This document shows, in pieces, positions 15,311 to 33,133 of a stretch of DNA of 64,000 nt; positions within the stretch are counted from its first letter, which is position 1; every line of letters begins with the position of its first letter. A model generated the notes under the pieces. That model made no database searches. It was not told the DNA's origin and saw nothing but the letters and a program-made list of their open reading frames with translations. The stretch lies in assembly GCA_963667035.1 (NCBI GenBank), contig OY762964.1:2720001-2784000 (forward strand). The letters run 5' to 3'. The translations under genes were made by a program, and so were the position numbers. The stretch comes from Candidatus Cloacimonadales bacterium (lineage in GTDB: Bacteria; Cloacimonadota; Cloacimonadia; Cloacimonadales; JAFGVF01).

Positions 15311-17755
15311 ATGAAAAAGAAACTCTTAACTCTCGCAATGCTGTTAATCGGAATAATTTCCGTTTGTTCAGCAAAACAACTCAGTGGAACCGTAACTGAT
15401 AAAACTACGGGTAATCCGATAGAAAACGCAATTGTTTCCACTGAACAATCAACAGTTACAACTGATACTAAAGGTCATTTCATAATTGAGACATCAGATA
15501 ATGAAATCAATGTTAAAAGAATGGGCTATGAAGAGCTTGAAGTTGCCGTTAATTCAGATTATCTTAAAATTAAACTGGAAAGAAAATCTGTCGAACTTTC
15601 AGGAGTGAAAGTCTCGACAACTCGTGTAAAGACAGAAACTTCACCTATTACTATCACTAATATTGACCAGGAAGAGATTCTCGAAGTTAGTTATGGACAA
15701 GACATTCCACTTCTTCTTGACGATGTACCAAACTTGCACACATACTCAGAGGCCGGTTCAGCTTTAGGTTACTCTCACATGAAAGTTCGAGGATTTGATG
15801 AGAGGAGAATCGGTATTATGGTTAATGGAATACCTTTCAATGATCCTGAAGACCATTCCGTATACTGGGTTGATATGCCGGACTTGGCAGAAAATGTTGA
15901 AAATATTCAGTTCCAAAAAGGTGTAGGTAATTCTCAATATGGTGTTTCAACTTTTGGTGGTTCACTTAATTTAATGACAAACAGCCTTAACAATCCTTAT
16001 CTTGCTGAGATTAGTTCCAATTACGGAAGTTTCAATACATGGAAGTATAGTGCAAAAATAGCAAAAGACCTTGGAAAAGGTTTTATCTCATCATTACGAT
16101 TCTCACAAATGGCATCTGACGGTTATAGAGATAATACTGCTTCCAAGATGTGGTCATACTTCTATAATCTTTCTTATATAGGTAAAAACTCGGTAACCGA
16201 GTTTAACACTTATGGAGGTAACGAAGTTACTCATGCGGCTTGGTATGCTTCTCCGATAGCTGAATTGAATGATAACCCTCAACATAATCCCAAAACTTAT
16301 GACAATGAAATAGATGATTTTTCTCAACCTCACTATGAGCTTCATAATCGTTGGAGAATAAATGATAAGTTGCTTTGGCAGAACTCAGCCTTTTACATCA
16401 GAGGTAAAGGTTTCTATGAACAGCTTAAGGATGAGGATGATTTATATTATTACTCACTTTCAAGCGATGATAACGACTCTGTTGCAGATGTTGTCAGACA
16501 GAAATGGGTTAAAAAACAGCACTATGGTTTAGTTTCAAACCTCACATGGTCACATCTGATGGGAGAGATTACATTCGGAACTTATCTTGCTAAGTTTGAT
16601 AGCGACCACTGGGGAGAAATTAAGAATGTATCCAATGCTGTAGATGCTGATGGAAATTCATTAGATGTAGATTATAGTGTAGGACAGAAGTATCACCAAT
16701 ACAAAGGTAATAAGGATTACATCACATTCTATGTAAATGAAAACTTTAATCTTAATGAATCCCTTTCTATGGTGGCTAACCTTCATTATCAGGGAATCAA
16801 ATACACATTTGAACAGGAAGAAGTAGGTAACTTCACTGGTGAAAACCTTCATAGTTATGATGTTGACTATGAATTCCTCAATCCGAGATTTGGTTTAAAC
16901 TATAGAGTATCTGAAGATATGAACTTGTATGGTAATGTTTCTTTTGCCGAGAGAGAGCCTGCTGATCAGGAACTCTATAACATCTGGGACGATGCTTCAG
17001 ACCTTGGAACAGCTCCTCTCTTTGAAACAAGCCATGAAGTTGTTGATAGTGAAGGAAATGTTGTGAGAATAGAATGGGAAGATCCTGTTGTAAAACCTGA
17101 AAAGGTTATTAACTATGAGATCGGACAAAGAGTTAATATTGAAGGTTGGAACATCGAAACCGCTATTTTCTGGATGGACTTTGATAAAGAAATCGTTCGT
17201 TACGGTGGTGTAGATTCCGATGGCTATCCTAACATGGGTAATGCCGATAAAACAATCCACAGAGGTGTTGAATTAGCTATTAAGAAAGAATTCTTTAATA
17301 ATTTAGGACTGTCGGCTAACGTAGCATATAATGATAACTATTTCAAGAATTTCAAAGCTTATGACACTAATTGGGATACTTACGAAACATTCGTTGTTGA
17401 CTATTCAGGAAACAAGATTGCTAACTTCCCTGATGTAATTGCCAATGCCAAGATAAGCTATAATTGGAGATGGTTAACCGCAACTTGTGAATATAAGTAT
17501 GTTGGCGAACAGTATCTTGATAATACTCAAAATCCTGATAGAACAATACCTGAATATAGTCTTGTTAATGCAGGGTTGAAATTTAAACTCACTAACATTG
17601 GTTTATTGAAGACAACAAGTATTACATTTAACGTTAATAACTTGTTTGATAAAACTTATTATACAGATGGTTATTATGATGCTTGGGATGGCGGAAATAA
17701 CTACTGGATAGGTTCAGAACGTAACTTTATGATAGGATTTAGAACCGGTATATAA
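15311..17755 (+). CDS. TonB-dependent receptor, probably for thiamine or a precursor
   Basis: Signal peptide, carboxypeptidase-regulatory-like N-domain, plug motif VRGFD..IGIMVNGIP, C-terminal NVNNLFDKTY..RNF; TPP riboswitch upstream. Confidence 0.9.
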   Translation: MKKKLLTLAMLLIGIISVCSAKQLSGTVTDKTTGNPIENAIVSTEQSTVTTDTKGHFIIETSDNEINVKRMGYEELEVAVNSDYLKIKLERKSVELSGVKVSTTRVKTETSPITITNIDQEEILEVSYGQDIPLLLDDVPNLHTYSEAGSALGYSHMKVRGFDERRIGIMVNGIPFNDPEDHSVYWVDMPDLAENVENIQFQKGVGNSQYGVSTFGGSLNLMTNSLNNPYLAEISSNYGSFNTWKYSAKIAKDLGKGFISSLRFSQMASDGYRDNTASKMWSYFYNLSYIGKNSVTEFNTYGGNEVTHAAWYASPIAELNDNPQHNPKTYDNEIDDFSQPHYELHNRWRINDKLLWQNSAFYIRGKGFYEQLKDEDDLYYYSLSSDDNDSVADVVRQKWVKKQHYGLVSNLTWSHLMGEITFGTYLAKFDSDHWGEIKNVSNAVDADGNSLDVDYSVGQKYHQYKGNKDYITFYVNENFNLNESLSMVANLHYQGIKYTFEQEEVGNFTGENLHSYDVDYEFLNPRFGLNYRVSEDMNLYGNVSFAEREPADQELYNIWDDASDLGTAPLFETSHEVVDSEGNVVRIEWEDPVVKPEKVINYEIGQRVNIEGWNIETAIFWMDFDKEIVRYGGVDSDGYPNMGNADKTIHRGVELAIKKEFFNNLGLSANVAYNDNYFKNFKAYDTNWDTYETFVVDYSGNKIANFPDVIANAKISYNWRWLTATCEYKYVGEQYLDNTQNPDRTIPEYSLVNAGLKFKLTNIGLLKTTSITFNVNNLFDKTYYTDGYYDAWDGGNNYWIGSERNFMIGFRTGI

Positions 17756-17767
17756 ATAATTAATAAT

Positions 17768-17795
17768 ACCTGTGCCACAATTAAGTGGCACAGGT
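17768..17795 (+). other. Strong intercistronic stem-loop
   Basis: Perfect 11-bp stem ACCTGTGCCAC-AATTAA-GTGGCACAGGT between the receptor and S-component genes; weak U tract. Confidence 0.7.
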
Positions 17796-17813
17796 TATTT
17801 AATAGAGGATACA

Positions 17814-18380
17814 ATGAAAAAACTTAAATTATCCGAGATAATCTTTATTACTGTAGTATCAACAGCTATGGGTGTATTCTGGTGGGGATATACCTTCTTG
17901 TACGATATTGTTTCACCTTTTTTAAAACCTCTGGGAATTGAAAATCTGATGTCCGGTGTTTGGTTAATGGGAGCAGTATTCTTTCCATTTATCATTAGAA
18001 AACCGGGAAGTGCTATTCTTGGAGAAACTGTTGCAGCATTTGTCCAAGGCTTCATTGCTAGATGGGGGATTACCTCAATTCTTTTCGGATTTGGTCAGAG
18101 CGTACTTGTTGAACTGTTTTTCCTCTCCTTAGGATATAAACGTTGGAACAGAGCGGTAATGATGATAGCTGCCATGCTCTCGGCAATAAGCTCATACCTT
18201 GTATCATTGTTTTACGAAAAGTGGTATACCTACTCGGTTGCTTTCAATATTAAACAAATAATATGTTACCTTATTGGGGGTGTTTTGTTTGCGGGAATTC
18301 TTAGTATCTTTGTTGCTAACAGATTAAAGAAGACAGGTATATTAAACCAGTTCGAAATTGTAATGGATGATTTGAAATAA
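17814..18380 (+). CDS. ykoE: ECF transporter S component, YkoE-like (thiamine/HMP)
   Basis: GVW..GAV...IIRKPGSAILGE motif, about 6 TM helices, TPP regulon context; ATG 17814 has a GAGG RBS. Confidence 0.82.
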   Translation: MKKLKLSEIIFITVVSTAMGVFWWGYTFLYDIVSPFLKPLGIENLMSGVWLMGAVFFPFIIRKPGSAILGETVAAFVQGFIARWGITSILFGFGQSVLVELFFLSLGYKRWNRAVMMIAAMLSAISSYLVSLFYEKWYTYSVAFNIKQIICYLIGGVLFAGILSIFVANRLKKTGILNQFEIVMDDLK

Positions 18381-22277: not shown

Positions 22278-22913
22278 GTGAGTGAATCATATACATCTAA
22301 CACTATTATTTCATATATAAACTCATTTTTGAGTTATCCCAATCCCGTTTTACCGGAAATGGAAAGGAAGCATCAGACAAGAATAAACATTCAACCTAAT
22401 ATGAGTTTACAGGGAGCTACATTATTACAGTGTCTTTTAATAATGAACAATGCAAAACATGTAATCGAGATAGGTGCATGTATAGGTTACTCGGCAATAT
22501 TCATTGGTGAAGTAATGAAAAAGAACGGTGGTAAGTTGTACACTATAGAGATTGATGAAAGATTTATCCCTGAAATCTATGAAAACATCTTATCTGCTGA
22601 TTTATACAAACAGATTGAAGTAATTAACGGAGATGCCGAGGAAAAACTTGATACAATATCCGGAGAAGCCGACTGTATCGTGTTGGATGCTAATAAACCT
22701 TTGTATCCGAGAATACTTACAAAATGTATTGATAAACTTAGGGTTGGCGGTTTTATTTTTGCAGATGATACCCTCTTTAAGCCTATGGGATTAGCAAAAA
22801 GACTCAGTGAGCCCATGGACGAATACAATAAGCTGGTTTTTAATCAAAGCAATCTGATTAGTACAATATTGCCTATAGGTGATGGAATTACTCTAAGTAT
22901 AAAAACAAGTTAA
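22278..22913 (+). CDS. SAM-dependent O-methyltransferase (CCoAOMT/TrmR-like)
   Basis: IEIGACIGYS, LDANK, ADDTLF, PIGDGI motifs. Confidence 0.85.
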   Translation: MSESYTSNTIISYINSFLSYPNPVLPEMERKHQTRINIQPNMSLQGATLLQCLLIMNNAKHVIEIGACIGYSAIFIGEVMKKNGGKLYTIEIDERFIPEIYENILSADLYKQIEVINGDAEEKLDTISGEADCIVLDANKPLYPRILTKCIDKLRVGGFIFADDTLFKPMGLAKRLSEPMDEYNKLVFNQSNLISTILPIGDGITLSIKTS

Positions 22914-22923
22914 GGAGAACTAA

Positions 22924-23478
22924 ATGATAAAAAAGAGTATTTACATAATTGTTGTTATAGCTTTAGCTATTGTAATGATGGCAGCAGACAGTGATAACGA
23001 AGTTAAGAAGCTATTTAGAAAATCAAGAATTAAACAGTGTGGCGGCACTCTGATACAAAAAGAAGACGGATGGTATTTAAAAGCAGATAATAATCAGGAA
23101 CCAATGCTTTATATTGACTCTGCTGATATTGAGAACAACGAGAAAGTGAATTGGGTTAATGGGGCTACAGTAAAATTAGTAGGTCTTGCTCATCAGGAAA
23201 AGCTCTTAGTTACTACTGTCATTACTGAAACTGATACAATATTTGTAAGGGACTCTAAAGGTGATAAATATACGGAAGAAGGTCTTGCTTCAAAGTGGAG
23301 TGTCATTCCTGAAAAATGTATAGGTTGTGGACTCTGTGTAAGATTATGTCCTGTTGATGCAATAACTATGGTTAAAGGCAAAGCTTTGATTGATCAATCA
23401 AAGTGCATTAATTGCGGTAATTGTGCTCATGGTGGAATCAGAGGAAGAGGTTGTCCTACAAGTGCAATTAAGAAATGA
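22924..23478 (+). CDS. Exported protein with C-terminal 2x[4Fe-4S] ferredoxin domain
   Basis: N-terminal signal-like stretch; CIGCGLCVRLCP and CINCGNC-x8-CP motifs. Confidence 0.8.
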   Translation: MIKKSIYIIVVIALAIVMMAADSDNEVKKLFRKSRIKQCGGTLIQKEDGWYLKADNNQEPMLYIDSADIENNEKVNWVNGATVKLVGLAHQEKLLVTTVITETDTIFVRDSKGDKYTEEGLASKWSVIPEKCIGCGLCVRLCPVDAITMVKGKALIDQSKCINCGNCAHGGIRGRGCPTSAIKK

Positions 23479-24466
23479 AATTATCCTATTCATATTAGTA
23501 ACTGTTTTTTTACTATTAGTCGGATGCAACGATTCCATATCCAAACTTTCTGTTGCAAGCAATATTGCACCCGACCCAATATCCGGACTTACAACACTTA
23601 AAGTAAATGACAATTATATTCAAGTTATTTGGGATATACCTATTAGTGATTACTTGGACCATTACATGGTTTATATATGTGAGAATAGCGATGTATTGAC
23701 TTTAACTGATAACTTATATACTGATAAGCTCCTCGGATTTGCAGGAAAGAATAGACAGGGTATCACTATTAGAAATCTGCAAGCATCTACAGAGTATAAA
23801 CTTGGTGTTATTTCTGTTAACAAGTATGGAGCAAATAATGGACTTCAAGATTCAATTGTAGTTACAACTACCGACTTGCATATAAATGATACTGAAGTGC
23901 CACAAACACCGGAGTTAGTTAATATCTCAGCCCATTTAACAAAAGGTATTGATTCCGCAGCTAATACTGAGATTGAAATAGAGTTTACCCCTGGGAATGG
24001 AGAAGAGTTAATTACACCTGATATTAGGTTTTCTCCTATGCCTGCTTTTGCGAACTGGGATTCAGCTTTTCCAATCACTAATTCGGAATTATTTGTTCCT
24101 GAGGTTTTAAATGGAGAGACAGGTGTTATAAGATTTAATTTTCAAGATGCAGCTTGGCCTATACCGTTCCAAATGAATGATTTTGAGTTTATGATATTAC
24201 TTAAAAGCAAAGATGCAGAAAACAACGTATCAGAAAACTCCATAAATACTATGGGTATATTCAAAGTTGAAGTTCAATCAGGCTGTATAAAATGCTGGAA
24301 CTGCATAAATATTTGTCCTGAAAACGCTATTTCTAAATCAAGTTCAAAGGCCGTAATTGATATAACAAAATGCACCAGATGTGGCGATTGTGTGTTGAAA
24401 TGTGCAGATAAAGGTTCTGAAGTAATCTTCTTCAAGACTGAAGAAACCGGAGGCTCCAAATGGTAA
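23462..24466 (+). CDS. Lipoprotein with FN3-like domain and C-terminal 2x[4Fe-4S] domain
   Basis: Probable GTG start 23462; lipobox LLVGC; FN3-like W..Y..L...TEY pattern; CIKCWNCINICP and CTRCGDCVLKC. Confidence 0.78.
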   Translation: MQLRNEIILFILVTVFLLLVGCNDSISKLSVASNIAPDPISGLTTLKVNDNYIQVIWDIPISDYLDHYMVYICENSDVLTLTDNLYTDKLLGFAGKNRQGITIRNLQASTEYKLGVISVNKYGANNGLQDSIVVTTTDLHINDTEVPQTPELVNISAHLTKGIDSAANTEIEIEFTPGNGEELITPDIRFSPMPAFANWDSAFPITNSELFVPEVLNGETGVIRFNFQDAAWPIPFQMNDFEFMILLKSKDAENNVSENSINTMGIFKVEVQSGCIKCWNCINICPENAISKSSSKAVIDITKCTRCGDCVLKCADKGSEVIFFKTEETGGSKW

Positions 24467-24711
24467 AGAAACTGGTATTGCTTGGCTTAATACTTATAAC
24501 GATTCTTCTTGCAGTAACTATTGAAGACAAGCGTAGCCCACTGGTTCTCAAGAATAAATGCGTAGGATGTGGAGACTGTATTGAGGCATGTCCGGTTGAA
24601 GCTATTGAGCTTAAAAAAGGTAAAGCTACTATAGACAACCAAATATGTATAAATTGCGGAATATGCTTCAAAACTTGTACATACAGTGCCATCAGGAGTG
24701 AGAATGAATAA
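24460..24711 (+). CDS. Small 2x[4Fe-4S] ferredoxin with N-terminal signal or anchor
   Basis: MVKK plus 15 hydrophobic residues; CVGCGDCIEACP and CINCGICFKTC; GGAGG RBS. Confidence 0.85.
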   Translation: MVKKLVLLGLILITILLAVTIEDKRSPLVLKNKCVGCGDCIEACPVEAIELKKGKATIDNQICINCGICFKTCTYSAIRSENE

Positions 24712-24946
24712 GATAGTTATCGTTCTTGTCATAATGGTTGTTGCACTTGCTATCGGTTGTGATAAAGTTACAAAGCCCGAATATAACGTTGAGAATTCAA
24801 CATGTAATGCTTGTGGTAACTGCATTGATGTATGTCCTAACGATGCTATAGAGTTTGATAAAAATGGAAAAGCAATTATAGACCAAACTAAATGTATTCA
24901 ATGTGCCAAGTGCATTCCGGTTTGCCCTCAAGGAGCGATATACTAA
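24704..24946 (+). CDS. Lipoprotein 2x[4Fe-4S] ferredoxin
   Basis: ATG 24704 with AGGAG RBS; lipobox LAIGC; CNACGNCIDVCP and CIQCAKCIPVCP. Confidence 0.87.
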   Translation: MNKIVIVLVIMVVALAIGCDKVTKPEYNVENSTCNACGNCIDVCPNDAIEFDKNGKAIIDQTKCIQCAKCIPVCPQGAIY

Positions 24947-26154
24947 TGAAATACTTAACTATAATTATACTTTTGTTTGTCATTAGTTCCGCTTTTTCTT
25001 TTGACCTTAAAAATCTCAATGATTTCTCGATAGGATACTATAGTGTTGATGGAAAGAACTTAATGAATTCTAGGGAGAAGCTCTTCACGGACATATCTTT
25101 TAATAGCTATTTCGCCGGTGGTATTGAGCTTGACCTTTTGATCTCAGAAAATGAATATAAACAAAAGAATTTCTATGTTTATGATAGATTTAAATCATAT
25201 CTAACTTGGAACTATGAGAGCACAACTCTCTCTACTTCTTTCAGTAACACTCTTTTTGATAATGCTAAAACCAATGAGATAATTTTAACAGGTTTGTTCG
25301 ATCCGGTAATAAAACCTGTTTCAAAAAACAGTCTTACTTTTGCAGCTACACATAATCAGTGGAATTTTAACATTGATGGAGCAATCAGGTATAGGAACCT
25401 TAATTATGATTATCATCTATCTGAGGAAACAGAGCATGAGAACGACCTATTTATCGATTTAACGCTTTCAAGAGATATTATTGAGGGATTAGGAGCCTTT
25501 ACAACAATATATTATAAGAATGATTTGAATGATATACCTAATTCGGAGATTCCGGATAACTTCGAGATTAACGACCCGAGTAAATATTATAATGAACTTA
25601 CACTAGGGGGAGGAGTATACTGGAAAAAACGTTTTAGTAATAATCAAGTGATTAAAGTATCAACAGCATATCTACATAGAGACGGTGAAACAATTCCTGA
25701 TTATCTAACTCACTATTTTATAACGGATGTACGCTACCCATATTCATTATCACCACTTCTATATGGTTATATCTCAGGTATTAGCAGAGGATGTTATAAT
25801 GAACAGGACGATAAGTTTTACAGAGTTTCCAATCTTATTAGAGCTCAATTAAAGTATTCACTTAATCCTTTTGATTCTCGGGCTTATATTTGTGCCGGTT
25901 TTAAATACAATCCGGAGAACAAAACAGATAGATATTACGGGGAAGTTTCGTATCCGATTGATAGATTCTTAACTCTAAGGGTTGCCGATTATATCTCTCC
26001 TAAATATTACAATAACGTTGTTACCGGAATAGAATACTCTTTTGCAAAATACAATTCGATATATTTGGAGAACACTTATTCTATCGTCAAAAGTGATGTA
26101 CTCGCATTAGCTGATAACAATGAGTTAAGATTAGGTACAAGGATAGCATTTTAA
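24946..26154 (+). CDS. Putative outer-membrane beta-barrel protein
   Basis: TAATG coupling to previous gene; signal peptide ending AFS; Tyr/Phe-rich alternating strands; C-terminal LRLGTRIAF beta-signal. Confidence 0.65.
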   Translation: MKYLTIIILLFVISSAFSFDLKNLNDFSIGYYSVDGKNLMNSREKLFTDISFNSYFAGGIELDLLISENEYKQKNFYVYDRFKSYLTWNYESTTLSTSFSNTLFDNAKTNEIILTGLFDPVIKPVSKNSLTFAATHNQWNFNIDGAIRYRNLNYDYHLSEETEHENDLFIDLTLSRDIIEGLGAFTTIYYKNDLNDIPNSEIPDNFEINDPSKYYNELTLGGGVYWKKRFSNNQVIKVSTAYLHRDGETIPDYLTHYFITDVRYPYSLSPLLYGYISGISRGCYNEQDDKFYRVSNLIRAQLKYSLNPFDSRAYICAGFKYNPENKTDRYYGEVSYPIDRFLTLRVADYISPKYYNNVVTGIEYSFAKYNSIYLENTYSIVKSDVLALADNNELRLGTRIAF

Positions 26155-27125
26155 TGTTTAAAACTTTCACGGAAGGATTTATTCTGGGACTAACAACCGG
26201 TACTGTGTGCTTGGTTAGCTGCACTCCCATATATCTACCTTTTATAATTTCAGAAAAACGTTCTATCAGTAAAAACTTTCTGAAAGTAATGGAAATCTCT
26301 GCAGGTAGATTCTTTTCTTACTTGTCATTTGGTGCCTTAGCAGGATGGTTAGGTGGAAATATTGCTACGATAGATAGAAATCTGTTCACGGGAATCGCCT
26401 ATATTCTTTTAACGGTTTTTATGCTTCTATCGTTCTTTAGATTAACTAGAAAAGAGAAGAGTTGCCATATACCCAAATTTGTTAATGTAACTAGAAGTGC
26501 ATTTTTATTAGGCATATTTACCGGGATTAACTTTTGTCCTTCCTTTTTAATTGCATTATCGAAAGCAATTGACTTGGCAGGTCCTTTGAGTGGAATCTTG
26601 TTATTCTTTGGTTTCTTTGTCGGCACTTCACTTTTCCTAATTCCTTTAGCATTTACCGGATTTCTTTCAAAGATGAAGCTTATGAAAGTAATTGCAAGAT
26701 ATGCTTCAATTGCAATAGCTCTCTACTTCTTATACTCAGGTATCCATAAGATAAAGGATTTTATTGTTTCATCTCAAGCCAGAATTGTAGATCCGATATC
26801 AGTTGAATACAAGTTAACTTTGTTTACTGATGATCCTAATTCTGAATTTTATAAAGTACTTTCAGATTCATTAATAGCAATTAAATCTAATCAGTTCACA
26901 TTTGTAAGTACTGATAAACTAGGAATATCAACTTTAGCATCTGTTCAGAAAGGGACAATTCTATTGATAGCTCCGAATTTGGTAAACGATACAAACATCA
27001 AAGCTATTAAAAATACTGACCATTATATCATGAATCCACAGCATTCACCAGCCGGCGTGATTAATTTCATGAGGAATTATAGTATTAAGGTTGGAAAGAA
27101 CCAATTCTTAGAATGGGAATTTTAA
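26154..27125 (+). CDS. DsbD_2 / TauE-SafE-like membrane protein with soluble C-terminal domain
   Basis: GTVCLVSCTP and GINFCP membrane Cys motifs, GRFFSY, FFVGT; about 6 TM helices. Confidence 0.7.
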   Translation: MFKTFTEGFILGLTTGTVCLVSCTPIYLPFIISEKRSISKNFLKVMEISAGRFFSYLSFGALAGWLGGNIATIDRNLFTGIAYILLTVFMLLSFFRLTRKEKSCHIPKFVNVTRSAFLLGIFTGINFCPSFLIALSKAIDLAGPLSGILLFFGFFVGTSLFLIPLAFTGFLSKMKLMKVIARYASIAIALYFLYSGIHKIKDFIVSSQARIVDPISVEYKLTLFTDDPNSEFYKVLSDSLIAIKSNQFTFVSTDKLGISTLASVQKGTILLIAPNLVNDTNIKAIKNTDHYIMNPQHSPAGVINFMRNYSIKVGKNQFLEWEF

Positions 27126-27403: not shown

Positions 27404-29008
27404 TTGATGCGCAAGAGCTTACTAATTGCCGTAACTCTCTTAATGCTACTTATTAGTAGCCTGTTAGCTCAGGCTAGCCCTGAAGTTGAGTTCGAGTTCC
27501 AAAGGGGAGATGGAACCGGAACACTGTTAATGAAATTCACTATTCCTGAACACTATTATCAATCATATGTTGTTGGCGATGATATGCCAATGTTCTATAT
27601 GGAGGCAAGTGCTGAAGGTTTTGAGTTTGAACCAGCTAACTATCCTAATCCTGACAATGTTAAAATCGGAGAGACAGTTAAGTATAAACATGAAGCAGTA
27701 TTATCTCAAACTTTCACTTATAATCCAGAGACAAAAGATGGTAAGATAAAAATTGCTTACGGTTATCAGTTATGTGAAGCAGGAGCTGCTTGCGAGTTAC
27801 CTATAGATGACGAAGTAACTCTTTCTTTTGCAACCGGAAAACCTATACAAAACGAAGAAGTTGTAATGGAAGAAACTATCTCTGAAGGAGATGCCGAAGA
27901 AAATCAAAAAATCATTGAAGCTTTCACAAAACTAAATGATAGATATGTTGTAAAAGGCTCAAAAACAGGATTTATTAAAGCGGAAAAGTTTATTGCTTTC
28001 CTCGAAAATCCAAGTGCAATCGGTGATTCAGGCTCAGAAGTTTCTGATAAGAAAGAAGGATTCGAAGGCAAAAGCATCTGGCTTATACTAATATCCATTT
28101 TGATCGGTGGACTTTTAATGAATCTTACACCATGTGTACTGCCAATGATACCGATAACAGTTGCTATAATCGGAGCAGGTTCACAAGGGCAATCAAAAGG
28201 CAAAGGCATAATGCTGGGGACTAGTTACGGACTCGGAATGGCAATCGCCTATGGAGCTTTAGGATTAATAGCAGCGTTAACCGGTTCTGCTTTTGGACAA
28301 CTTAACTCTTCATGGATCTTTAATGCAGTTATTGCATTAATCTTTATATTGTTAGCTCTAGCCATGTTTGATGTATTTGCAATAGACTTTTCAAAATATC
28401 AGAATCCTAACAAGAGGGCTCAACAGCGTGGTAAAGTAGCAGGAGTTTTTGTAATGGGTATCTTTGCTGCTCTATTAGCAGGAGCATGTGTTGCCCCAAT
28501 CCTCATTGCTGTTATTATTTATGCCGGGAATTTATACAGTCAGGGTAATGTTCTCGGATTGGCTCTTCCTTTCCTTCTTGGTATTGGAATGGCACTACCT
28601 TGGCCATTCTTAGGTGGAGGTATGTCTATTCTTCCGAAACCAGGTAACTGGATGAAGTGGGTAAAGATTATATTTGGTGTTTTCATACTATTTATGGCAT
28701 ATAAATATAGCTCTAATGCTTACCATATCCTCAAGCCCAAACCGGTTGTTGGAACAATATCTCAAATTGAGACAGCTATAAAAGAAAAGAAACCCATATT
28801 CTTAGATTTTACAGCGTCCTGGTGTAGTTCATGTAAAGAAATGGATAGGTCAACATTCAAAGATGATGGTGTTATTGAGACTCTTAAAAAATATGAGTTT
28901 ATTAAATACTATGCCGAAAAGCCAAGTAACTCACCAGCAAAGGAAGTTATGAATTTATTTAGTGTTAAAGGTCTTCCAACCTATATTATTTTAGAGCCTA
29001 GGGAATAG
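27404..29008 (+). CDS. dsbD: Thiol:disulfide interchange protein DsbD
   Basis: N-domain CEAGAAC, TM LTPCVLPMIP and GACVAP, PKPGNWM, C-terminal thioredoxin FTASWCSSC. Confidence 0.9.
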   Translation: MMRKSLLIAVTLLMLLISSLLAQASPEVEFEFQRGDGTGTLLMKFTIPEHYYQSYVVGDDMPMFYMEASAEGFEFEPANYPNPDNVKIGETVKYKHEAVLSQTFTYNPETKDGKIKIAYGYQLCEAGAACELPIDDEVTLSFATGKPIQNEEVVMEETISEGDAEENQKIIEAFTKLNDRYVVKGSKTGFIKAEKFIAFLENPSAIGDSGSEVSDKKEGFEGKSIWLILISILIGGLLMNLTPCVLPMIPITVAIIGAGSQGQSKGKGIMLGTSYGLGMAIAYGALGLIAALTGSAFGQLNSSWIFNAVIALIFILLALAMFDVFAIDFSKYQNPNKRAQQRGKVAGVFVMGIFAALLAGACVAPILIAVIIYAGNLYSQGNVLGLALPFLLGIGMALPWPFLGGGMSILPKPGNWMKWVKIIFGVFILFMAYKYSSNAYHILKPKPVVGTISQIETAIKEKKPIFLDFTASWCSSCKEMDRSTFKDDGVIETLKKYEFIKYYAEKPSNSPAKEVMNLFSVKGLPTYIILEPRE

Positions 29009-29010
29009 AT

Positions 29011-30402
29011 ATGAAGAGATTTTCAATTATAATTGCTTTATTACTTACAATTAGTGCTTGCGAGAGATTTACAAAACCGGAACCGGAACCTACAATAACT
29101 GAAAAGGTTACCGATTACTTTGATAATTACGTTGAATCAGCTTTAAATGATATGACAGTTGACGATGTAGGTAGTATTATGGCTCTATACAGCGATGATT
29201 ACCTTAATAATGGTCTTGAAAAAACAGATATTAAACAATCATTCTTGGATTATGCTAGTCAGAATAACATTAATAACTTAACCATTTCATTTACTATTGA
29301 GAATGAAGATTCACTAAAAGTTAGCTGGTCTTTCAATAATAGTAAAAACATACCCCAGATAGATTACTTAATTCCTGATTCAACAAGTAAGTACAAGTTC
29401 TATGGAAATCAAGTATCCTCGATGCAAGATATGATATATACTTTCTTTGAAGAGGAAATCTTACCTGCAATAGAACAAATTTCAGAGTCTGATGTAAGTA
29501 GTATAATGGCATTTTATTGTGATGACTACTTAAACAATGGATCTGTAAAATCAGATGTTGAGCAAGAATATATTGATTTTTTGAGTAATGGTAATGTAGT
29601 CCAATTCTCAATGCATGTAACAATTGTTAATGAAGAGCAGATGAAAGTTAGCTGGTCTTTTTGCCAAACCGAAACGATGAAGAGAATTGACTACCTGATG
29701 GAGAATGGTGATAGTTTCTTATTCTATGGGGACCAACAACAACTTCCACCAACAGAAACAACTAAAGCTTTCATTGAAGTTCTCACAGCAACTTGGTGCC
29801 CTAACTGTCCCGAGTTAGAGCACAAGATAGAAGAAATGAAAGAAACTTATGGAAATGATTTGTTCTACGTTGAATATCACTATAACGATAACCTTAGTGG
29901 TGATTTTAGTGACATCCAAAGCTGGTATAACATATATAGTGCTCCTACCGGAGTATTGCAAGGAACCAACATATTTGTTGGCTCGGAAAGTACTACGCTT
30001 AACCAGTACAATAATATTATCAGTAGCATAACCGCAACAAATGCTGATATTGTACTTAATAATTTAGAATACACTCATGAAGGTGATAAATATAGTTTCA
30101 GCATAGATATTGATAATCCCGGTATGGTTGATACAGAAGATTTGTATTTAAGATATCTTATTGTTGAAGATACATCTTCATCACTTAACAATGCAGGGAA
30201 TCCATGCAAAAATGTAATGTTGGAACAGAATAAAATAGCATTATCCGATGTTGATTTTTATGGAACTTATGAGTTTGATCATACATTGTTAAATACTTTA
30301 CCGGAAGATGCTAAGATAATTATATTTGTTCAGACTATGCCTGAAACATTTAATGAATCAACATGTAAAATCCATAACGTAATGGAAGCAGACCTAAACT
30401 AA
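29011..30402 (+). CDS. Lipoprotein with duplicated N-terminal module and Omp28/thioredoxin-like domain
   Basis: Lipobox ISAC; two copies of DV.SIMA.Y.DDYLNNG..K.D; EVLTATWCPNCP. Confidence 0.72.
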   Translation: MKRFSIIIALLLTISACERFTKPEPEPTITEKVTDYFDNYVESALNDMTVDDVGSIMALYSDDYLNNGLEKTDIKQSFLDYASQNNINNLTISFTIENEDSLKVSWSFNNSKNIPQIDYLIPDSTSKYKFYGNQVSSMQDMIYTFFEEEILPAIEQISESDVSSIMAFYCDDYLNNGSVKSDVEQEYIDFLSNGNVVQFSMHVTIVNEEQMKVSWSFCQTETMKRIDYLMENGDSFLFYGDQQQLPPTETTKAFIEVLTATWCPNCPELEHKIEEMKETYGNDLFYVEYHYNDNLSGDFSDIQSWYNIYSAPTGVLQGTNIFVGSESTTLNQYNNIISSITATNADIVLNNLEYTHEGDKYSFSIDIDNPGMVDTEDLYLRYLIVEDTSSSLNNAGNPCKNVMLEQNKIALSDVDFYGTYEFDHTLLNTLPEDAKIIIFVQTMPETFNESTCKIHNVMEADLN

Positions 30403-30413
30403 TAGGAGTAATA

Positions 30414-30935
30414 ATGAAACATAGACTTATATTAATAGCAATCGTACTTTTACTTGCCGGTTCTCTTTTTGCAGAGAAGAAGTTTGCAGATTTCAAGCTC
30501 GAAGATGTTAAAGGTAATAAAGTGTCATTAGACACTTTACTCAAAGATGGTCCTATCGTAGTTGATTTTTGGGCAAGTTGGTGTGATCCATGTAAAAAAG
30601 CTCTTCCGCATCTTGATGAGATTGATAAGAAATATGACGGTATAAAAGTTGTAGCAATCTCAATAGACTCTCCAAGAAAAATGACCCGAGCAAAAGCCTT
30701 TGTTAAAAAGAATAAATATGACTTTATTACTCTGTTTGATAGTGATCAGATGATTTCAAAAAACATGGGTGTAAAGAATATACCACATACATTTATAGTT
30801 GATAAAGATGGTACTGTTGTGTTTGAGTTTATGTCAGGTAAACCCGGAGGGGAGAAGATACTTGAAGCTGAAATCCAGAAACTTTTAGGTATTGAGACTT
30901 CTACCGAAGAAGTAGAAGAAGAAGTGGTTGAATAG
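30414..30935 (+). CDS. TlpA family disulfide reductase
   Basis: Signal peptide; VDFWASWCDPCKK; IPHTFIVDKDG. Confidence 0.9.
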   Translation: MKHRLILIAIVLLLAGSLFAEKKFADFKLEDVKGNKVSLDTLLKDGPIVVDFWASWCDPCKKALPHLDEIDKKYDGIKVVAISIDSPRKMTRAKAFVKKNKYDFITLFDSDQMISKNMGVKNIPHTFIVDKDGTVVFEFMSGKPGGEKILEAEIQKLLGIETSTEEVEEEVVE

Positions 30936-30944
30936 GAGTTGTTA

Positions 30945-32369
30945 ATGAAAAAAGTTTTTACAGCTCTACTTCTTCTCATATCATTATCGATTATTCTAGC
31001 TGATGAATTTGAGTTAAGCGGAACAAATGAGATGGAAGTCATTTACAAAACGGTTGATGACTCTCTGAATACCTACTTCTACAATGAGTTAAGTCTTTTA
31101 GCTAATTACAAAGACATAGTATTCGGAATGAAATTCCTAGCTTCAATGCCTAAATATGAAAGCGATGCTCCTATTGATGAGTTAGACACAAAAGATGTAG
31201 AGGTAGAATGGGACGAAAGATACCTAACTTTTGAGAAAGATAACCTAGCACTTCATGTAGGAACAACGGAAGACTTTGTTGGTTCAGGTATGCTGTTTAG
31301 AGCTTATCGAGATGATGATGTGGATGTAGATACAAGATTAGAAGCTGCTCTTGTAAAAGCTTCAACAGATTATTTTGAGGTGAAAGGTTTATATGGTGCA
31401 ATGCCAAGCGAGGATTATGAAGGTAAAAAAGAACTTGCAGGTCTTTTTGACATACAAAGCAGTTATTTCTCTCATACGAAAATTGGAGCTTCTTATTTCG
31501 AAAATCAAAGACTTGCAACTAGTACTGAATACTCTCTTACTCAAGCTTACGGATTCCGTATGACACAGGAATGGGATTTCTTAGATTTCTACGGTGAATA
31601 CGCAAGAACCTTGAACGACGATAGCGGAATCAATGGGGAAGGTTATTATGCTAATCTAAACACATATTTCGGAGATTTTAGCATTGTCGGTACATATAAA
31701 AACTTTTGGAATATGAATTATGACCTTAATGATACTCCAACTGCCAACTACCATGAAGAAACTCTATCAGATGATTTAGCCAGTGGTGCAGATGAAGAAG
31801 GTTTCATGGGAGAGTTTGGATGGGACCCGGAAGGCTATCATCTCCTTCTAAGCTATGCAGAAGCCTGGGATTCAGATAATGAAAGAAAAATGAACGATTT
31901 CTTCGGAGCAGTTGGTAAGATGATTGGTGAAAAAGAGATTACTGCAGAATTGGGTTATTGGGAAAAAGTTAATGATGAGGCAATCTCTTGGAAAAGAGAG
32001 ATAACTCCAGCTTTAGTTTTTGATATACCAACAGAAACTTTAGGTTTCCATATAAAAACAGAAATGCAGAGAATTGAAAAAGAAAACCAGGGAATTGAAG
32101 CTAATCACTGGGAACCACTAATTCAGACTGATGTTAGTTACGGTAATCATTCTATTTCAGTTATTGCAGAAACAAATGTTGAGGAATTTGAGGATGCTAC
32201 CGATAGCAGATATTTCCTTAATGCTGAGTTTAGAACAACAATCTATAATAATACTGATGTAGTGCTTTTCGCCGGTAGTGAAAAAGGTGGTAAAGTATGT
32301 AGAAATGGTGTCTGCAAGACTAATAAACCTTTTGATGGTGTTAGACTAGAGTTGACAACCAGATTTTAA
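30945..32369 (+). CDS. Putative outer-membrane beta-barrel (DUF6029-like)
   Basis: Signal peptide, GSGMLFRAY, C-terminal GGKVCRNGVC and terminal Phe; follows TlpA as in Bacteroidota clusters. Confidence 0.65.
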   Translation: MKKVFTALLLLISLSIILADEFELSGTNEMEVIYKTVDDSLNTYFYNELSLLANYKDIVFGMKFLASMPKYESDAPIDELDTKDVEVEWDERYLTFEKDNLALHVGTTEDFVGSGMLFRAYRDDDVDVDTRLEAALVKASTDYFEVKGLYGAMPSEDYEGKKELAGLFDIQSSYFSHTKIGASYFENQRLATSTEYSLTQAYGFRMTQEWDFLDFYGEYARTLNDDSGINGEGYYANLNTYFGDFSIVGTYKNFWNMNYDLNDTPTANYHEETLSDDLASGADEEGFMGEFGWDPEGYHLLLSYAEAWDSDNERKMNDFFGAVGKMIGEKEITAELGYWEKVNDEAISWKREITPALVFDIPTETLGFHIKTEMQRIEKENQGIEANHWEPLIQTDVSYGNHSISVIAETNVEEFEDATDSRYFLNAEFRTTIYNNTDVVLFAGSEKGGKVCRNGVCKTNKPFDGVRLELTTRF

Positions 32370-32380
32370 AGGAGCTTATA

Positions 32381-33133
32381 ATGAAAAAAACGATATTGTT
32401 ACTTGTTTTTATTGCTGTATTTGCAATGCTTGCAGCAGAACTTGTGGTTGATATCCCATTCTCAACTGAACTTGTTGGGCCGGAACCACATGGCACCACT
32501 AATTGGACTTCTGAATACTTTTCTATTACCAATACCGGTGGAGAAGGGATTTATCAGATAGATTTGGTACCGATTAATTTACCAACCGGTTGGGCAGCAA
32601 TGTGGTGTAATGAAGGATTATCACCTTTAGTTGCTGATGGATGCCATCATTATGCTTCTCCAGCTTGGGAGTTCACATTCCCTGCCGGAGCAACTCTCAA
32701 TCTTGATTTTCAAGCTAGTTATGATAGGACAGGATATTTCTATTTAAACTATGTTATTACTTCTAGCGAGCTAAATGAACCAATGAACTTACCATTCTTG
32801 TTTAGAACAGAAGATGCTGTCGCTAATGATGAAGATACTCAACCTATTTTAAAACCAAGTCTGATTAACAATTATCCGAATCCATTCAATCCAACTACTA
32901 CTATTAGCTATAATCTTACTAAAGACCAAGCTAGGAATGCTAAAATTGAGATATTCAATATTAGAGGTGAACTTGTACAAGTTTTTACTGGCCTAAAAGT
33001 TAATGAAAACAATGGTTCAGTAGTTTGGAATGGGGAAAATTTAAATGGAAGAATCTCTTCAACCGGAGTTTATTACTATAAACTATCAAGTGGTAAATAT
33101 ACCGAAACAAAGAAAATGTTGATGGTAAAATAA
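32381..33133 (+). CDS. Secreted protein with T9SS-type/FlgD-Ig C-terminal domain
   Basis: Signal peptide; NYPNPFNPTTTISY...IFNIRGELV...WNG...TGVYYY...KKMLMVK. Confidence 0.85.
   Translation: MKKTILLLVFIAVFAMLAAELVVDIPFSTELVGPEPHGTTNWTSEYFSITNTGGEGIYQIDLVPINLPTGWAAMWCNEGLSPLVADGCHHYASPAWEFTFPAGATLNLDFQASYDRTGYFYLNYVITSSELNEPMNLPFLFRTEDAVANDEDTQPILKPSLINNYPNPFNPTTTISYNLTKDQARNAKIEIFNIRGELVQVFTGLKVNENNGSVVWNGENLNGRISSTGVYYYKLSSGKYTETKKMLMVK

Follow-up and report, generated by a model that had tools for sequence, protein, structure and literature searches.

Ferredoxins with export signals and a predicted beta-barrel in Cloacimonadota: a candidate haem-free electron route across the cell envelope

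Could a bacterium move electrons across its outer membrane on iron-sulfur (Fe-S) clusters, with neither haem nor quinone? The question is raised by a six-gene operon at positions 22924..27125 of a 64,000-nucleotide stretch of Candidatus Cloacimonadales DNA (assembly GCA_963667035.1, contig OY762964.1, positions 2,720,001 to 2,784,000). This whole stretch is referred to here as the window, and the Cloacimonadales genome studied, a single contig that is 98.2% complete and whose nearest named relatives are Cloacimonadales/Cloacimonadota, as G000. A sequence-only reading of the window had taken the operon for a possible porin-ferredoxin wire, for example for syntrophic electron transfer. The arrangement is real and is conserved in two phyla, and we give slightly better than even prospects to a haem-free porin-ferredoxin electron relay whose clusters would be loaded outside the cytoplasm. 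Export signals, barrel fold and synteny favour the wire interpretation, and its syntrophic part found no direct support.

Ferredoxins, barrel and DsbD_2 protein of the operon

All six open reading frames (ORFs) are found on the plus strand where they had been placed. The core members are F3 (24460..24711, 83 amino acids [aa]), which is a bare 2x[4Fe-4S] ferredoxin behind a Sec-type signal, F4 (24704..24946, 80 aa), a lipoprotein 2x[4Fe-4S] ferredoxin with the lipobox LAIGC, and a predicted outer-membrane beta-barrel of 402 aa (24946..26154). F1 (22924..23478, 184 aa), a variable member, has a Sec-type signal, a ∼95-aa beta-rich domain and a C-terminal 2x[4Fe-4S] domain, and F2 (23462..24466, 334 aa) is a lipoprotein with a GTG start, the lipobox LLVGC, an FN3 domain (fn3, E 3e-6) and a C-terminal 2x[4Fe-4S] domain. 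The last gene codes for a PF13386 inner-membrane protein of 323 aa (26154..27125; the DsbD_2 protein), a frequent but separable partner. The TAATG couplings seen earlier hold for F4/barrel and barrel/DsbD_2, and the remaining junctions overlap by 17, 7 and 8 nucleotides.

The earlier count of four ferredoxin genes with eight motifs is borne out: each of F1 to F4 contains a single 2x[4Fe-4S] domain with two CxxCxxC...C motifs, eight motifs in total, the second motif of F1 having 9 residues ahead of its final Cys. All 8 Cys are retained in 50/50 aligned F3 sequences; in F4, seven of the cluster Cys are present in 54/54 sequences and the eighth in 49/54, the sole recurring substitution being Cys67 to Asp, and Cys to Asp is a known Fe-S ligand swap. 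Over two phyla the proteins keep all eight ligands along with the Cys-Pro and the spacing, and among solved structures polyferredoxins and RnfB are the nearest in sequence. The N-terminal domain of F1 has no convincing Pfam or PDB match; of 19 homologues, 2 match NF040991 MamS weakly (best E 0.0087). A tree of 59 ferredoxin domains, built on 51 columns, leaves 42 of 56 inner branches open, so that a single origin of the exported domains is undecidable from it.

Export was judged by hydropathy, charge, lipobox pattern and motifs. The G000 F1 to F4 signals have positive or neutral n-regions and h-regions of 16 to 17 residues, resembling exported controls (TlpA and cargo of the type IX secretion system [T9SS]) and differing from RnfB, whose N-terminus is an uncharged 30-residue anchor in place of a signal. 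Among 34 listed G000 ORFs with ferredoxin-type motifs, a signal-like N-terminus is present only in F1 to F4 and in a fifth ferredoxin encoded elsewhere (C1:491164-491976). The features are conserved in relatives, with an n-region net charge of at least +1 in 56/56 aligned signals (21 F4, 20 F3 and 15 F1), mean h-regions of 17 to 18 aa, and a lipobox Cys that is invariant in 54/54 F4 sequences. The N-terminal signals of the sequence-only reading, including LLVGC and LAIGC, thus stand, as does the lack of a twin-arginine motif in F1 to F4. In 87 ferredoxin ORFs of the operon, taken from 33 genome loci, the twin-arginine translocation (Tat) consensus never occurs and two have a bare RR (the set excludes six NapH-like ORFs, one mis-started F3 and ORFs with hydropathy under 2.5). 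A check for tatABC had also been proposed, and TatA and TatC were not found in G000, where control proteins matched in 11 of 14 cases; TatC was likewise not found in 59 of 61 genomes searched, the two TatC-bearing genomes being without the DsbD_2 protein. The signals suggest that the ferredoxins are exported from the cytoplasm.

The 24946 protein, predicted earlier to be a beta-barrel ending in Phe, retains that description: an AlphaFold2 model from 25 sequences is a 20-stranded barrel with no plug (predicted local distance difference test score 87.8, predicted template modelling score 0.78). The strands are amphipathic, the periplasmic turns are 2 to 8 residues long, and the outer loops are longer. 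Conserved lumen-side residues (D167, K191, G223, R263, R281, R299, G318 and K320) cluster on strands 8 to 16. The C-alpha diameter is near 36 Å by the textbook formula, giving room for one small ferredoxin (formula constants and ferredoxin size from general knowledge). No Pfam or NCBIfam family matched the barrel, and a fold search returned generic barrels only, the best being BtuB (Z 18.0, root-mean-square deviation [rmsd] 4.6, 338 residues), with MtrB 49th among 50 matches (Z 12.5, rmsd 6.1, 320 aligned). Homology to DUF3570 (PF12094) was considered and rejected, the window barrel having no match and 16 homologues none at E up to 1.

The match of the 26154 protein to DsbD_2 is firm (PF13386, E 1e-19), and its invariant cysteines number four, not three, C19, C23, C104 and C128 being present in 119/119 sequences. 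There are six transmembrane (TM) helices, with C19 and C23 in TM1 and C128 in TM4, and a C-terminal alpha/beta domain that is receiver- or flavodoxin-like and predicted to be periplasmic by the positive-inside pattern. DsbD_TM matches at only E 0.0015, below the cut-off, and fold matches are at noise level, the best at Z 8.6, with RnfA at Z 7.8 (rmsd 6.1, 150 aligned) and NqrE at Z 7.5 (rmsd 6.6, 152 aligned); CcdA was not among the matches listed by the fold and sequence searches, all of them noise-level. Homologues carry the source name 'sulfite exporter TauE/SafE'. Its role may be that of a CcdA-like shuttle for reductant, or it may hold a metal or Fe-S site in the membrane.

Conservation of the gene set

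Among 177 genomes of the phylum, 91 have a strong barrel match, 91 have an F4 orthologue, 89 have both and 84 have neither, so that of 93 genomes bearing at least one of the two, 89 bear both (8 of 99 barrel genome matches were discarded as signal-peptide-level). Related genomes are not independent in these counts, yet presence varies inside genera and the barrel and F4 track together. F3 and F4 lie directly 5' of the barrel in 75 of 77 informative loci, which are partly redundant and comprise 95 barrel loci minus 18 with insufficient upstream DNA. In one exception F4 is inside a longer ORF removed by the length filter (L053), and the other is probably a false barrel match (L103). The same order is present in all 20 loci picked by barrel from the 91, which were chosen for contig context and family spread, with four included because they are split. 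The synteny that the sequence-only reading had proposed to check is therefore strongly conserved in the phylum for F3-F4-barrel: by gene order and sequence this is the fixed unit, and F1, F2 and the DsbD_2 protein are members that vary or can be separated from it.

The DsbD_2 protein is present in 36 of the 61 genomes and its gene adjoins the barrel in 10 of the 20 barrel-picked loci. Sets composed of a NapH-like protein, a tandem exported ferredoxin and the DsbD_2 protein also occur without a barrel (L054, L087, L106, L108 and L110, the last on a contig of the same length as that of L054), which ties the DsbD_2 protein more to exported ferredoxins than to the barrel.

The slots upstream of the core differ among loci, and contain F1, a tandem signal-ferredoxin-linker-ferredoxin protein, a T9SS ferredoxin or FN3 lipoproteins. 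The last are 321 to 1720 aa long, with a ferredoxin at one or both ends of 1 to 12 counted FN3-type repeats, and F2 is a short form of this FN3-stalk family. Giant members whose stalk has a ferredoxin domain at either end are coded at L154:3490-8652 (1720 aa) and L043:2341-5502 (1053 aa). We infer that the FN3-stalk proteins are tethered carriers. The fifth ferredoxin of G000 (C1:491164-491976, minus strand, outside the window) has a signal peptide, a 2x[4Fe-4S] domain, a beta-sandwich domain and, as judged by sequence, a T9SS-type tail. Its L033 homologue matches Por_Secre_tail at E 1.3e-7, and at least 12 loci have a shorter homologue within the operon itself. G000 encodes PorV and SprA, and passages of PMC11285876 indicate that T9SS may occur in Cloacimonadota and Fibrobacterota.

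Searches with single sequences were insensitive (4 barrel matches; 3 loci), and a barrel profile search of 1.84 billion representatives returned 115 proteins, of which the sole one with a non-Cloacimonadota name is a weak match from Chitinispirillaceae. Four loci (L125, L126, L130 and L132) have identical gene order and diverged genes; the L126 DsbD_2 cluster includes a member named Chitinivibrionales, and the contigs are of Fibrobacterota type. In two of them the operon runs on into rnfG, C, D, E and A (L125:10024-14197 and L126:10008-14226), RnfB is not in the 16 to 19 kb of these loci (it could be elsewhere in those genomes), and both conserved Cys of RnfA and one of two in RnfE are lost, so that one of four Fe-S Cys is kept. 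The lack of rnfB and these losses would leave the half of Rnf that runs from NAD(H) to periplasmic flavin mononucleotide, which resembles one-way Nqr/Rnf-like complexes proposed in passages of PMC11334425. In L130 a NapH/NapG-like fusion comes next, and a NapH-like membrane protein gene is present in 25 of 129 loci. G000 has an orphan NapH-like membrane protein gene outside the window (C1:1992789-1993562, minus strand) whose homologues flank the operon in those 25 loci. The system may reach a third phylum, a lead provided by a 76-aa ferredoxin cluster in the ESM Atlas that is commonest in Fermentibacterota and scores 0.87 to F4.

Of 114 barrel matches, 6 carry a flavinylation-type motif in outer loop 1 (3 GA and 3 SA, against a background of 3 per 849,670 residues of G000 ORFs); such motifs also occur in the L132 barrel and in secreted proteins encoded nearby in these loci. 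Secreted-protein or lipoprotein genes within or beside the operon (L125:8262-8975, L125:14319-15056, L126:8318-8962 and L132:2252-4402) code for D-A/V-x-[ST]-[SAT]-A-[ST] motifs resembling ApbE flavinylation sites. ApbE is present in G000, unlinked to the operon. The DAVSGAT of three large G000 proteins was rejected as a flavinylation site, being part of W-x-A-V-x-G-A-x-x-Y, which we take to be an FN3-type motif.

A putative relay and its alternatives

UbiA was not found in G000, and no G000 ORF of at least 100 aa has more than one CxxCH, so that the components on which haem- and quinone-based extracellular electron transfer usually relies seem to be missing. In the relay that we favour, apo-ferredoxins would be exported unfolded via Sec, some being lipidated and one passing onward through T9SS. 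Their [4Fe-4S] clusters would then be inserted outside the cytoplasm, with Fe(II) and sulfide drawn from the surroundings, the four-Cys DsbD_2 protein probably keeping ligands reduced or handing over Fe or S. F3, F4 or both would lodge inside the plug-less barrel or rest on it and thereby span the outer membrane, as strict gene linkage and geometry suggest. F1 would serve as periplasmic carrier, with the FN3-stalk lipoproteins and the T9SS ferredoxin moving electrons to or from the surface. The inner-membrane link, to judge by gene neighbourhood, would be the NapH-like protein or an RnfG-D-C branch, not quinone, and electrons might flow inward or outward. A fully specified version, with Sec- and T9SS-exported ferredoxins threaded through the 20-stranded barrel in a haem- and quinone-free conduit, clusters built outside the cytoplasm with DsbD_2 help, and wiring to NAD(H) or cytoplasmic ferredoxin via a NapH-like protein or truncated Rnf, we hold tentatively, as something short of an even bet.

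Several observations weigh against the relay. We found no precedent for extracytoplasmic cluster assembly, and passages of PMC10924467 call periplasmic Fe-S proteins obligately Tat-dependent. SufBD was not found in G000, where the only Fe-S scaffold found is a single NifU that has no signal peptide and is encoded next to a NifS-like gene. In this genome the T9SS-ferredoxin and NapH-like genes are far from the operon and the latter is unlinked to it, Rnf is complete with RnfB included, and the barrel has a loop 1 of 2 residues and no flavinylation motif. The system has no linked enzyme that could act as terminal acceptor or donor outside the cell. The FN3-stalk proteins are not continuous wires, because their ferredoxin domains are ∼500 to 1600 residues apart. 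The DsbD_2 gene is apart from the barrel in 10 of the 20 barrel-picked loci, its protein was not found with this query in the barrel-bearing G030, and G020 has the DsbD_2 protein and exported ferredoxins but no barrel. The system is also missing from about half of the phylum.

A reading that obeys the rule of cytoplasmic cluster assembly is that the N-termini are membrane anchors that hold the ferredoxins on the cytoplasmic side, as the anchor of RnfB does; the barrel would then be an unrelated neighbour. The positive n-regions and short h-regions are like those of TlpA and T9SS cargo and unlike RnfB, and the invariant lipobox Cys, the T9SS tails and the barrel/F4 co-occurrence (89/93) also make this reading very improbable. 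Reuse of the ferredoxin fold without Fe-S clusters, as a binder of Zn or another metal or as a DsbD-fed disulfide/thiol-redox module, seems to us quite doubtful, since the eight ligands, Cys-Pro and spacing are kept in two phyla, with polyferredoxins and RnfB as nearest solved relatives, and since the recurring F4 change is itself an Fe-S ligand swap. Such reuse would fit the failure to find an extracytoplasmic Fe-S assembly route and the normal role of DsbD-type proteins in feeding thiol chemistry, as passages of PMC8238504 describe it.

The barrel might instead have a Slam-like role, as a translocon or anchor for surface ferredoxin lipoproteins, with F3/F4 as chaperone or plug, a local redox job such as re-reducing surface thiol/selenol enzymes, and no wire through the barrel. 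The plug-less barrel with conserved lumen glycines and the FN3-stalk lipoproteins of 321 to 1720 aa, which look like surface projections, are consistent with this. So is a DsbD-TlpA-Omp28-like-DUF6029 cluster directly 3' of the operon (window 27404-33133, plus strand), which codes for DsbD, an Omp28-like thioredoxin lipoprotein, TlpA, DUF6029 and T9SS cargo. The thiol cluster, however, was seen adjoining the operon only in G000 and in L151, where part of a similar cluster is convergent; 9 of the 20 barrel-picked loci (L147-L151 and L157-L160) have no large cargo nearby, only F3-F4-barrel with or without DsbD_2; and T9SS would already export one ferredoxin, so that we consider a translocon unlikely. 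Iron or Fe-S uptake would directly explain why apo-proteins leave by Sec: the ferredoxins would capture FeS clusters, or Fe(II) together with sulfide, for passage inward through the barrel, and reduction or import of the metal would fall to the DsbD_2 and NapH-like proteins. This would suit the TauE/SafE naming of DsbD_2 homologues, a FeoB-like gene (recognised from its N-terminal sequence) 3' of the barrel in L146, and the link of flavinylated systems to iron uptake in passages of PMC8238504. It is nonetheless improbable, as the barrel model has no TonB plug, a transporter is a neighbour in 1 of the 20 barrel-picked loci, several distinct ferredoxin families retain full electron-transfer motifs, and coupling to an RnfB-less Rnf better suits electron flow.

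Known systems, significance and flanking genes

Porin-cytochrome conduits (Shewanella MtrCAB, PDB 6R2Q; PioAB; Geobacter Pcc), as they are generally described, share the operon plan of an exported soluble redox protein, a redox lipoprotein and a plug-less barrel. The system described here differs from them in its 2x[4Fe-4S] domains, in having no haem proteins and no quinone pool, and in a barrel that has no Pfam match and appears unrelated in sequence to that barrel family. Clostridial-type 2x[4Fe-4S] ferredoxins and polyferredoxins (MvhB, FwdF and RnfB) have the same domain sequence with all eight ligands, and the export signals, FN3 stalks, T9SS tails and barrel partner are what set the present proteins apart. 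ApbE-flavinylation systems, as described in passages of PMC8238504 and PMC11334425, share NapH-like, DsbD-type and partial Rnf modules tied to extracytosolic carriers, a one-way Rnf half and, for a few of the barrels, an [S/T]GA[S/T]-like motif; here the carriers are ferredoxins, the DsbD-type protein is PF13386 with four Cys, there is no DUF3570 match, and the G000 barrel is motif-less. Tat-exported Fe-S proteins of the NapG/MauM and HybA type likewise are extracytoplasmic [4Fe-4S] carriers beside NapH-like or other membrane partners, but according to passages of PMC10924467 they are loaded in the cytoplasm and require Tat, whereas Sec, lipoprotein and T9SS signals are present here and Tat was not found. 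By the sequence features tested the system is outside the porin-cytochrome, Tat-Fe-S and DUF3570 families, and its function is inferred.

The system is not described in the literature searched, although most subscription papers were outside that search and the supplementary gene-cluster tables of PMC8238504 might include loci, and passages of PMC8542988 do not mention exported ferredoxins. The operon thus looks like an undescribed candidate for a haem-free electron route across the envelope. Cloacimonadota have been linked to direct interspecies electron transfer via putative conductive pili in passages of PMC7382037. Sec-, lipoprotein- and T9SS-type ferredoxins without Tat would need new extracytoplasmic cluster assembly whatever their physiological role. 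Should the barrel complex prove to be a conduit, it would be a form of extracellular electron transfer that runs on Fe-S and goes unnoticed in screens for multihaem cytochromes, and it might be a candidate for electron exchange by anaerobes without cytochromes in digesters and sediments; roughly half of the Cloacimonadota, together with some Fibrobacterota, could then trade low-potential electrons with minerals or with partner cells. With just three small genes, the core is testable in vitro.

Contigs from Logan (3 runs of one sample, possibly the source of the assembly) cover the operon stretch with 0 differences. The F2 start is most likely GTG at 23462 rather than TTG at 23390; the sister genome, G001, has an identical GTG. 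A one-base frameshift suspected at this start was ruled out by the GTG kept in G001 and by the lack of an indel in the contigs. A promoter and terminator scan was not above chance, with 18 sites against 25.3 expected. An O-methyltransferase gene (22278-22913, plus strand) ends 10 nucleotides 5' of F1 and is probably outside the system, as that position is shared only with G001. Further upstream (15311-18380, plus strand), the window codes for what appears from sequence to be a TonB-dependent-receptor-like ORF followed by an ECF-transporter-like membrane protein.

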